A stretch of DNA of 52,689 bases, counting the filler, from Bipalium vagum (Eukaryota): the NCBI GenBank assembly GCA_037834085.1. It is 3 parts of 3 records of this genome, joined end to end, with 100 filler letters (N's around TTAATTAATTAA, not from the genome) between each part and the next. Parts side by side here need not be neighbours in the genome. Positions count along the whole stretch, not along the records: positions 1 to 17,496 come from JBBMKC010063060.1; 2 more parts are not named here. One strand, 5' to 3'. Below, piece by piece: positions 8,744-9,949 of the stretch; positions within the stretch are counted from its first letter, which is position 1; each line of letters begins with the position of its first letter. The position numbers and the translations under genes were made by a program. Under the pieces are notes generated by a model. That model worked only from the letters and a program-made list of their open reading frames with translations. It did no database searches and had not been told where the DNA came from.

Positions 8744-9534
8744 TCACTTTAATTGACGTAATAGATCCATCTGATGAATTAACTTTCTCGCTTTGGACCA
8801 TTCGCAGCTTCCTCCGATACCGAATGGGAAACATGCATCCCGCTTACTGAAAATAATTGATTCATTTTTAAAGTCTTTGGCAAGAATGACATAAATAAAA
8901 TCCTAATTATTAGATAATCTGAAAACTACAAAAGACACTTAGGTTAAGTAGTTAACAAAGTTGACCTTTTTATTTATTGCGAAAAGGATCTAGAAAGATT
9001 ATTAAAGATTACGACGGCACTAGGCTTTTCATTATTATTTCTCAAAAAATAGTTGATCAAGAATGGCATTAGGAAAGAAATTATTTTTAAATACTAATGA
9101 AAAGGAAAATGGATAGGATTTGAGAATTTAAAGGGTGGAGAATTTTTATATTTTATCTTTTATAAATTAATAAATATAAAATTCAATGTAATGTAAAAAT
9201 CTATATAGTCCAAACTTGATTTTTGATTTTTTTCTCTTTTCAGTATTGTATTGAGGATTTTCTTCTAAAGCTTTTTGAACCAACATATACCTAAAAATAA
9301 TAACATAACAAACAATTGAATTATAATTTACAACCATGCACAAAATATAAATATAAATAATGGTCTTCTGAACATAGAAAGGTACCTCTCTATCGGCTCT
9401 AAGCCATTCCAGGTGTCTTGTAATCTCTGAATGACATTAATATCAGCCTTAAGAACATGAGATTCAATGTCATCCGCCATCGAAAAGGATACACATAAAA
9501 GACTCACCATCATACAAAGCATGGTACTTTTCAT
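8744..9534 (-). CDS. prepro-peptide hormone/neuropeptide precursor, calcitonin-like architecture (108 aa; exons 9534-9386, 9290-9216, 8846-8744; alternative start 9567)
   Basis: Two phase-2 GT-AG introns give MKSTMLCMMVSLLCVSFSMA-DDIES...NTE-KRKK-SKIN-KR-DACFPFGIGGSCEWSKARKLIHQMDLLRQLK*. This reads as signal peptide, propeptide, basic sites and a 31-aa two-Cys peptide. Confidence 0.72.
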
Positions 9535-9949
9535 TCTATACACTTTCTTTGTGATTTTCACGCTCATGAAACAATGTGGAGCTCAACTTTATTTATAATA
9601 CTTTTTATTTACTCTTCGAATCTCCTGTTTTATCGTAAAAATAACTCAATTTGTTAGATTTGAGAGATTAATTTTAAAAAATATTAAAAATATCACGACC
9701 ATTGACAGAGAATTAATTCTGATTTTGACTATTCTTCACAATCGATGTTCTCTGTTTTAAGCAAACAAATAAAAAAAATAAAACTCACAAATTCTTATTA
9801 AAATAGTCTTTGATCTCGAAAAAAAGCAGACCAGCCAAATAATTGTTTATTAAAATTGTGATTTATGGGAAAATGTAAAAGAATTTTAAATATCGAAAAA
9901 GAATTTTTTACCATTCACGAATTAGCAAAGATAGAATTCTCATTTCTTT

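Follow-up and report, generated by a model that had tools for sequence, protein, structure and literature searches.

In one class of lophotrochozoan calcitonins, as represented in part of the supplement of PMC8557429, the ring ends with Leu-Gly-Gly-x-Cys and is usually followed by Ala at +5 (here and below, positions are counted from the second Cys). Hydrophobic residues occupy +8, +12 and +14 in this class, +15 is Leu, and Pro-Gly stands at +21/+22 (PMC8557429). Mussel calcitonins have rings of x8 and x10 (PMC7200681, Table 2). At the other end of the peptide, a Pro-amide is described as conserved in calcitonin and DH31 peptides in the relevant parts of PMC12638048 and PMC7200681, and the C-terminal amide is treated as both conserved and necessary in calcitonin-family ligands (sections of PMC13256775 and PMC7200681). 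In CGRP, according to the same portion of PMC13256775, the amide end binds the receptor extracellular domain and the ring activates. Calcitonin has been reported from a polyclad larva (PMC13551398, excerpt) and from xenacoelomorphs (PMC6188537, excerpt); a survey published in 2026 that covers 52 neuropeptide genes of planarians names, in the excerpt used here, no calcitonin. In the openly accessible literature we found neither a triclad calcitonin nor a non-amidated invertebrate calcitonin, and the motifs of the peptide described below retrieved nothing relevant from full texts. The whole list of Schmidtea prohormones (PMC2953531, Table S5) contains no peptide like this one, and no calcitonin.

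The gene under study lies in the window, by which we mean the whole 52,689-nucleotide stretch of Bipalium vagum DNA that was analysed (assembly GCA_037834085.1, 441 Mb in 272,664 contigs), in the first of its three parts (positions 1-17496, 28% GC, contig C63060). Three exons on the minus strand, 9567 (or 9534)-9386, 9290-9216 and 8846-8744, join in frame into 119 codons and a stop, and an AATAAA is found 20 bases 3' of this stop (Table 1). The third exon begins one base before the Lys-Arg codons, thus the whole predicted peptide is within this exon. Skipping of the second exon, a 75-nt cassette, would preserve the frame. The original prediction had three exons splicing into a leader, a propeptide, a Lys-Arg site and a C-x8-C peptide, and this architecture holds as predicted splicing: the GT-AG joins are in frame and all four splice sites are kept in a second copy of the gene (see below). 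The span first proposed, 8744-9567, was right in its exon layout; for its start at 9567, the ATG at 9534 appears the more likely alternative. This ATG opens a short basic n-region followed by a hydrophobic core, and the 11 codons upstream show 0 synonymous and 5 replacement changes between the two copies. The leader itself, however, has 0 synonymous and 4 replacement changes, which weakens the argument from codon changes. About 1.1 kb upstream, and head to head with the peptide gene, starts a HORMA-domain gene (Pfam PF02301, window 10708-11553, plus strand), which was not seen within 9 kb of the second copy.

Table 1. Position of the elements of the peptide gene along the window.
Feature	Positions	Strand	Remark
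Upstream block, likely 5' UTR / promoter	9535..9893	-	copies 82-97% identical
Coding exon 1 from likely ATG (9534): leader and first part of propeptide	9386..9534	-	in-frame upstream ATG at 9567
Predicted signal peptide, about 19 codons, boundary from hydropathy only	9478..9534	-	Kyte-Doolittle 9-residue peak 2.56
Intron 1, 95 bp, GT-AG, phase 2	9291..9385	-	copy 2 identical at 92/95 bases
Exon 2, 75 nt, frame-preserving cassette, KRKK site at 9238-9227	9216..9290	-	copies without any difference
Intron 2, 369 bp, GT-AG, phase 2, in the codon directly before Lys-Arg	8847..9215	-	splice sites kept in copy 2
Lys-Arg, predicted convertase site	8840..8845	-	retained in copy 2 through a synonymous change
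Predicted mature peptide DACFPFGIGGSCEWSKARKLIHQMDLLRQLK	8747..8839	-	Cys ring 8833-8804; predicted helix residues 11-30
Stop codon	8744..8746	-	2 codons before the calcitonin Pro position (4 in copy 2)
AATAAA, candidate polyadenylation signal	8719..8724	-	similarity between copies stops at about 8685

The only other match to the gene in the genome, whether by protein or by DNA, is on contig C197264. The two copies are 88-90% identical across about 1.2 kb (window 9893-8685). Because this block is common to both and the flanks have no similarity, the second copy reads as a dispersed duplicate. In addition to the four splice sites it retains the AATAAA. Contig depth of the two copies is 15-24, similar to the 21 of L061, a one-copy gene described below, depth not being a copy number. 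Between the copies, all 8 changes in the peptide exon (codons 87-117) are synonymous and none replaces a residue (Fisher p = 4e-7); the exon-1 propeptide has 4 replacements next to 8 synonymous changes (p = 2e-4). These counts show that the gene is real and that its mature peptide is under purifying selection. It is thus hardly credible that we are looking at a decaying calcitonin duplicate, i.e. a truncated pseudogene in the making: each copy does have its own stop near the expected calcitonin tail, but selection has acted strongly on the whole peptide since the duplication, and the splice sites and the leader are intact. The intron 1-exon 2 segment (window 9385-9216) is 97-100% identical between the copies, against a divergence of about 44% at synonymous sites in exons 1 and 3; a gene-conversion tract is possible, as is a splicing constraint on the frame-preserving cassette.

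After Lys-Arg, the window copy encodes 31 residues with two Cys spaced C-x8-C and ends Leu-Lys-stop. In the second copy a stop stands in place of this Leu, with Lys-Arg codons right behind it; the peptide of that copy is two codons shorter, a 29-mer. The simplest reading of the two endings is that the ancestral peptide ended at a dibasic site at this place and that each copy later gained a stop. On this reading, the trimmed product would be a 30-mer for the window copy and a 29-mer for copy 2. The peptide had been proposed as a 31-mer that ends the precursor: the sequence following Lys-Arg is as described, whereas the mature length is revised to probably 29-30 residues, copy 2 giving 29 and trimming being likely to take the last Lys off the window product. 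Predicted monoisotopic masses with one disulfide are 3303.6 for the 29-mer, 3416.7 for the 30-mer, 3544.8 for the untrimmed 31-mer and 1771.7 for a 17-residue ring fragment. Folding of the single sequence with AlphaFold predicted coil over residues 1-10 and helix over residues 11-30 (mean pLDDT 72.9), the ring region being unstructured in this prediction.

The net charge of the peptide is +2 and its best 11-residue helical moment is 0.57. This amphipathic helix, together with the recent duplication, might point to a secreted offensive or defensive peptide of pharyngeal or skin glands, acting as a mimic of a prey hormone or as an antimicrobial and possibly itself calcitonin-derived. Calcitonin-family mimics are known in venoms (PMC13311285, in part), and non-flatworm COX1 in the assembly may come from prey. 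We nevertheless hold a gland peptide to be improbable, as the mature sequence is invariant between the copies instead of fast-evolving, the copies are only two and the charge is low.

The other feature that had been claimed, the lack of an amidation signal, was borne out. Neither copy has Pro-Gly; the stop is at +20 in the window copy and at +18 in copy 2. No fitting PG[KR] exon was found in the 8.7 kb that follow the window copy, in the 4.2 kb that follow copy 2 or in intron 2, where no alternative two-Cys exon was found either. With none found, and with the similarity between copies ending just past the polyadenylation signal, exon 3 is likely to be the terminal exon of the gene. Past the stop of the window copy, its 3' UTR has a relic Lys-Arg at +23/+24, in the calcitonin cleavage register; it was rejected as evidence, the two preceding codons being far from Pro-Gly and copy 2 having an 8-base insertion there. 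Because the Pro-amide is absent, we class the gene among calcitonin-derived variants and do not count it as an ordinary calcitonin-family member.

The same genome contains an unannotated, compact, single-copy calcitonin-type precursor, L061 (C238311:7575-7844, i.e. L061:2076-2345, plus strand). Its two coding exons, separated by a phase-2 intron of 69 bp that interrupts the basic site, encode an ATG, a hydrophobic leader, this basic site, C-x8-C and finally Pro-Gly-Lys-stop. Pro and Gly fall at +21 and +22, as in the nemertean, brachiopod, phoronid and oyster peptides. An ending of the Pro-Gly-Lys-stop type occurred at 4 of the 487,840 translated positions examined, and this ending was not part of the search motif. 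By every sequence criterion, L061 is a calcitonin-type gene. It shares with the window peptide C-x8-C, GG-x-C, Ala at +5, His-Gln, Leu at +15 and the location of the peptide at the end of the precursor. In each of the two genes, the mature peptide is shortly preceded by a phase-2 intron, 4-5 codons ahead of the first Cys, a match whose weight is limited since one intron in three is expected to be in phase 2 by chance. L061 differs from the window gene in its Pro-Gly-Lys-stop (a predicted Pro-amide), its very short propeptide, its two coding exons and its single copy.

The two peptides align without gaps, with 8 identities in 25 positions. At non-motif positions, shuffling gave p = 0.022 and 0.029 for the similarity, and a background of 76,570 translated windows gave p = 0.025 and 0.012. 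In a genome scan for the ring plus a hydrophobic +15, all 29 matches were translated, and L061 came first among the 27 that are neither the window gene nor its copy. Its lead is small: the raw free-position score is about zero, -1 as compared with -5 and -7 for the next chance matches. Taken alone, the similarity to L061 is modest evidence; the shared ring size and intron phase and the location of the peptide in the precursor add to it.

L061 itself was uncovered by a genome scan with a back-translated ring motif, C-x(2-4)-[LIFM]GGxC-x4-A, drawn up with the window peptide in view. This gave 45 matches, compared with 21 in the control; 35 of the 45 were translated in context, and the other 10 were judged out of frame or stopped from the printed match. 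Further scans for paralogs yielded nothing calcitonin-like among 30 translated of 167 matches and 8 examined of 237; in another, 30 of 84 matches were translated, 7 were open and none had Pro-Gly-basic. A candidate for a third gene, read as KR-C-x2-LGG-x-C on contig C56739, was discarded because the frame is broken in its relative on C207004 and because the reading lies at the end of a repeat.

Database searches with the peptide were blank. Pfam returned no relevant family; the calcitonin model PF00214 matches neither this peptide nor that of L061, and run against the genome it gave no ring match, as in the controls. The ESM Atlas had no usable match for either peptide. As Pfam and the Atlas are blank on L061 too, their silence on the window peptide means little. 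No homolog was found among 5.8 billion or 1.84 billion proteins, and a word-indexed protein search scored none of its candidates, of which there were 3 for exon 3, 3 for exon 1 and 1 for the L061 exon. Two phmmer matches (1.84 billion proteins) were rejected, both being translations of tandem repeats with scores summed over the repeats. Two CCCH zinc fingers from the PDB (E 0.2) were rejected as well, because the peptide has two Cys only and a secreted context.

The absence of a database homolog, the missing Pro-amide and a similarity at p of about 0.01-0.03 only would all fit the main alternative, in which the gene encodes an orphan neuropeptide specific to flatworms, acting on some other GPCR and resembling calcitonin by convergence of ring and amphipathic helix. 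Planarians are rich in lineage-specific secreted prohormones, among them spp-18, spp-19 and grh-1, which have non-amidated, C-terminal two-Cys peptides (PMC2953531, Table S5). Those peptides, however, have a much wider Cys spacing, and convergence would have to account for the gap-free match to L061, with the same ring size, GG-x-C, His-Gln, Leu and intron phase. We therefore regard an orphan peptide as unlikely. The data do allow a lineage-specific peptide, as the case for calcitonin homology is a modest one that draws on short-peptide statistics.

Candidate receptors were read from the genome. The 7tm_2 model has 30 matches, and the 14 that were read include six related class-B1 exons, 40-81% identical, which form a calcitonin/PDF-type group (L011, L012, L014, L015, L017 and L021). 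The two exons tested both had the human calcitonin receptor as best match, CRF receptor 1 being within 1.5 bits for L011; such assignments come from single exons, by which calcitonin-type and PDF-type receptors are inseparable. The class-B1 exons, including also L022/L026, are paired, with proteins 77-91% identical, a synonymous divergence of 0.55-0.88 and no intron similarity. Judged from these exon sequences, the receptor duplications are older than that of the peptide gene, and the calcitonin/PDF-type group is expanded.

The first proposal had been a divergent calcitonin-type peptide or a new neuropeptide. Of these branches, the calcitonin one has now gained the L061 alignment, the pattern of ring end and helix, the intron phase and the receptor exons. 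We consider it likely that the window gene is a calcitonin-derived, non-amidated paralog acting on a calcitonin/PDF-type class-B1 GPCR of this genome. More tentatively, and at chances we would put somewhat below even, two calcitonin systems may exist side by side in flatworms of this lineage: one with the canonical Pro-amide peptide, the other with a paralog that is selected, duplicated and independent of the amide, and that either has its own co-evolved class-B1 receptor or serves as a natural biased ligand or antagonist at the canonical receptor.

How such a calcitonin-derived peptide might be produced and act can be outlined. The leader would direct the precursor to secretion, a prohormone convertase would cut at Lys-Arg, carboxypeptidase E would remove the terminal Lys and a Cys3-Cys12 disulfide would close the ring; the 2026 planarian neuropeptide survey, in the part used, describes processing enzymes of such kinds for planarians. 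By the two-domain model, ring and helix would enter the core of a class-B1 receptor without the amide anchor. Since the amide of CGRP docks on the extracellular domain, the peptide would depend on a receptor paralog that co-evolved with it or on another docking surface on its helix, for which the Lys/Arg-rich face might serve. We prefer the option of an agonist acting on a receptor paralog of its own, because the activating ring is the part held invariant.

If this is true, an invariant paralog lacking the amide implies a different docking mode on a class-B1 receptor, and the gene would be a natural experiment on amide-free engagement. Both genes would moreover serve as probes for flatworm neuropeptides overlooked by motif searches keyed to Gly-Lys-Arg. 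L061 is of interest by itself, the Schmidtea prohormone table being without a calcitonin.

Several other observations were made along the way in the window and in the assembly. Two related pairs of secreted-looking ORFs (window 3621-4480 and 38842-39775, plus strand) have a Cys pattern recalling PAN/apple domains; the first pair had no Pfam match. The window also contains exons of a secreted EF-hand protein that by eye resembles calumenin (18414-18788, plus strand), of a WD40 protein (25271-27400, minus strand) and of a P-type ATPase (51324-51620, minus strand), as well as numerous Tc1/mariner remnants. A weak double-jelly-roll-like match, below cut-off at E 0.0014 (32981-33409, minus strand), and ORF remnants in L028:1546-2782 may belong to a Polinton-like element. 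Three distinct COX1 genes are present in the assembly (L003, L004 and L005). Two of them fit NCBI table 9 and are 79% identical to each other; the third is of another kind, presumably from another phylum, possibly a mollusc. In the best COX1, AAA stands where Asn is normal and TGA reads as Trp, which fits table 9, a code common to flatworms and echinoderms; the divergence of this COX1, together with low GC and short introns, points to a flatworm, probably a triclad. Short GC-rich contigs of foreign look also occur. Given the second table-9 COX1 and the third one of another kind, the assembly, going by its sequences, holds some foreign or transferred DNA.

Compared with described peptides, the window peptide reads Ile-Gly-Gly-Ser-Cys at the ring end, then Ala at +5, Leu at +8, Gln at +11, Met at +12, Leu at +14 and Leu at +15, with the stop at +20. 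Elevenin (L11) is likewise C-x8-C and non-amidated, but its ring consensus is another one and it is located next to the signal peptide instead of at the precursor end. An elevenin-like product would require an internal cut at Arg-Lys, six residues past the second Cys, releasing a non-amidated C-x8-C ring of 17 residues as the active form. The short tail before a dibasic site in elevenins fits this layout. Arg-Lys is a poor convertase site, however, the 12 residues behind it are also invariant between the copies, and three distinct phoronid elevenins, which adjoin the signal peptide, share a P-F-A-P-x-C-R-G core that is absent here, making this product very improbable.

With vertebrate calcitonin and CGRP (PF00214), the window gene has in common a signal peptide, a propeptide, a dibasic site, what would be an N-terminal disulfide ring, and a helix; the vertebrate peptides differ in their smaller ring and in the amidated end needed for receptor binding (PMC13256775, in part). 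DH31, as described in a section of PMC12638048, has no Cys and a Pro-amide end, whereas the window peptide has two Cys and no Pro-amide. Closer in ring size is CALCIa of the mussel Mytilus galloprovincialis (PMC7200681, Table 2), with which the window peptide shares C-x8-C, an Ala before the ring and the 31-33 residue class; the ring sequence of CALCIa is different and its C terminus is a Pro-amide. The ring had been described as larger than in calcitonins, which is correct with respect to the vertebrate peptides only, CALCIa having the same spacing.

The lophotrochozoan LGG-x-C class, in the portion of PMC8557429 used, differs from the window peptide by a ring of x6-x7 where the window peptide has x8, and by Pro-Gly-basic at the end where the window peptide stops after +19 (+17 in copy 2). 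The window peptide also has an aromatic/Pro-rich ring start, and there is one peptide per precursor. Neither the window peptide nor L061 has the Glu that is conserved at +3 in the published peptides. Judged by eye against the nemertean, brachiopod and phoronid peptides and that of Crassostrea gigas (XP_011441374), the window peptide resembles this class in Lys-Arg followed by a short [LI]-G-G-x-C ring, in Ala at +5, in hydrophobic residues at +8, +12 and +14, in Leu at +15 and in Gln at +11; the propeptides, also compared by eye, have a similar hydrophobic helix pattern. Finally, splice variants of the Phoronis and Novocrania calcitonins switch between His and Gln directly before Lys-Arg (PMC8557429, in part), which suggests a phase-2 intron in that codon, the very place of intron 2 in the window gene.
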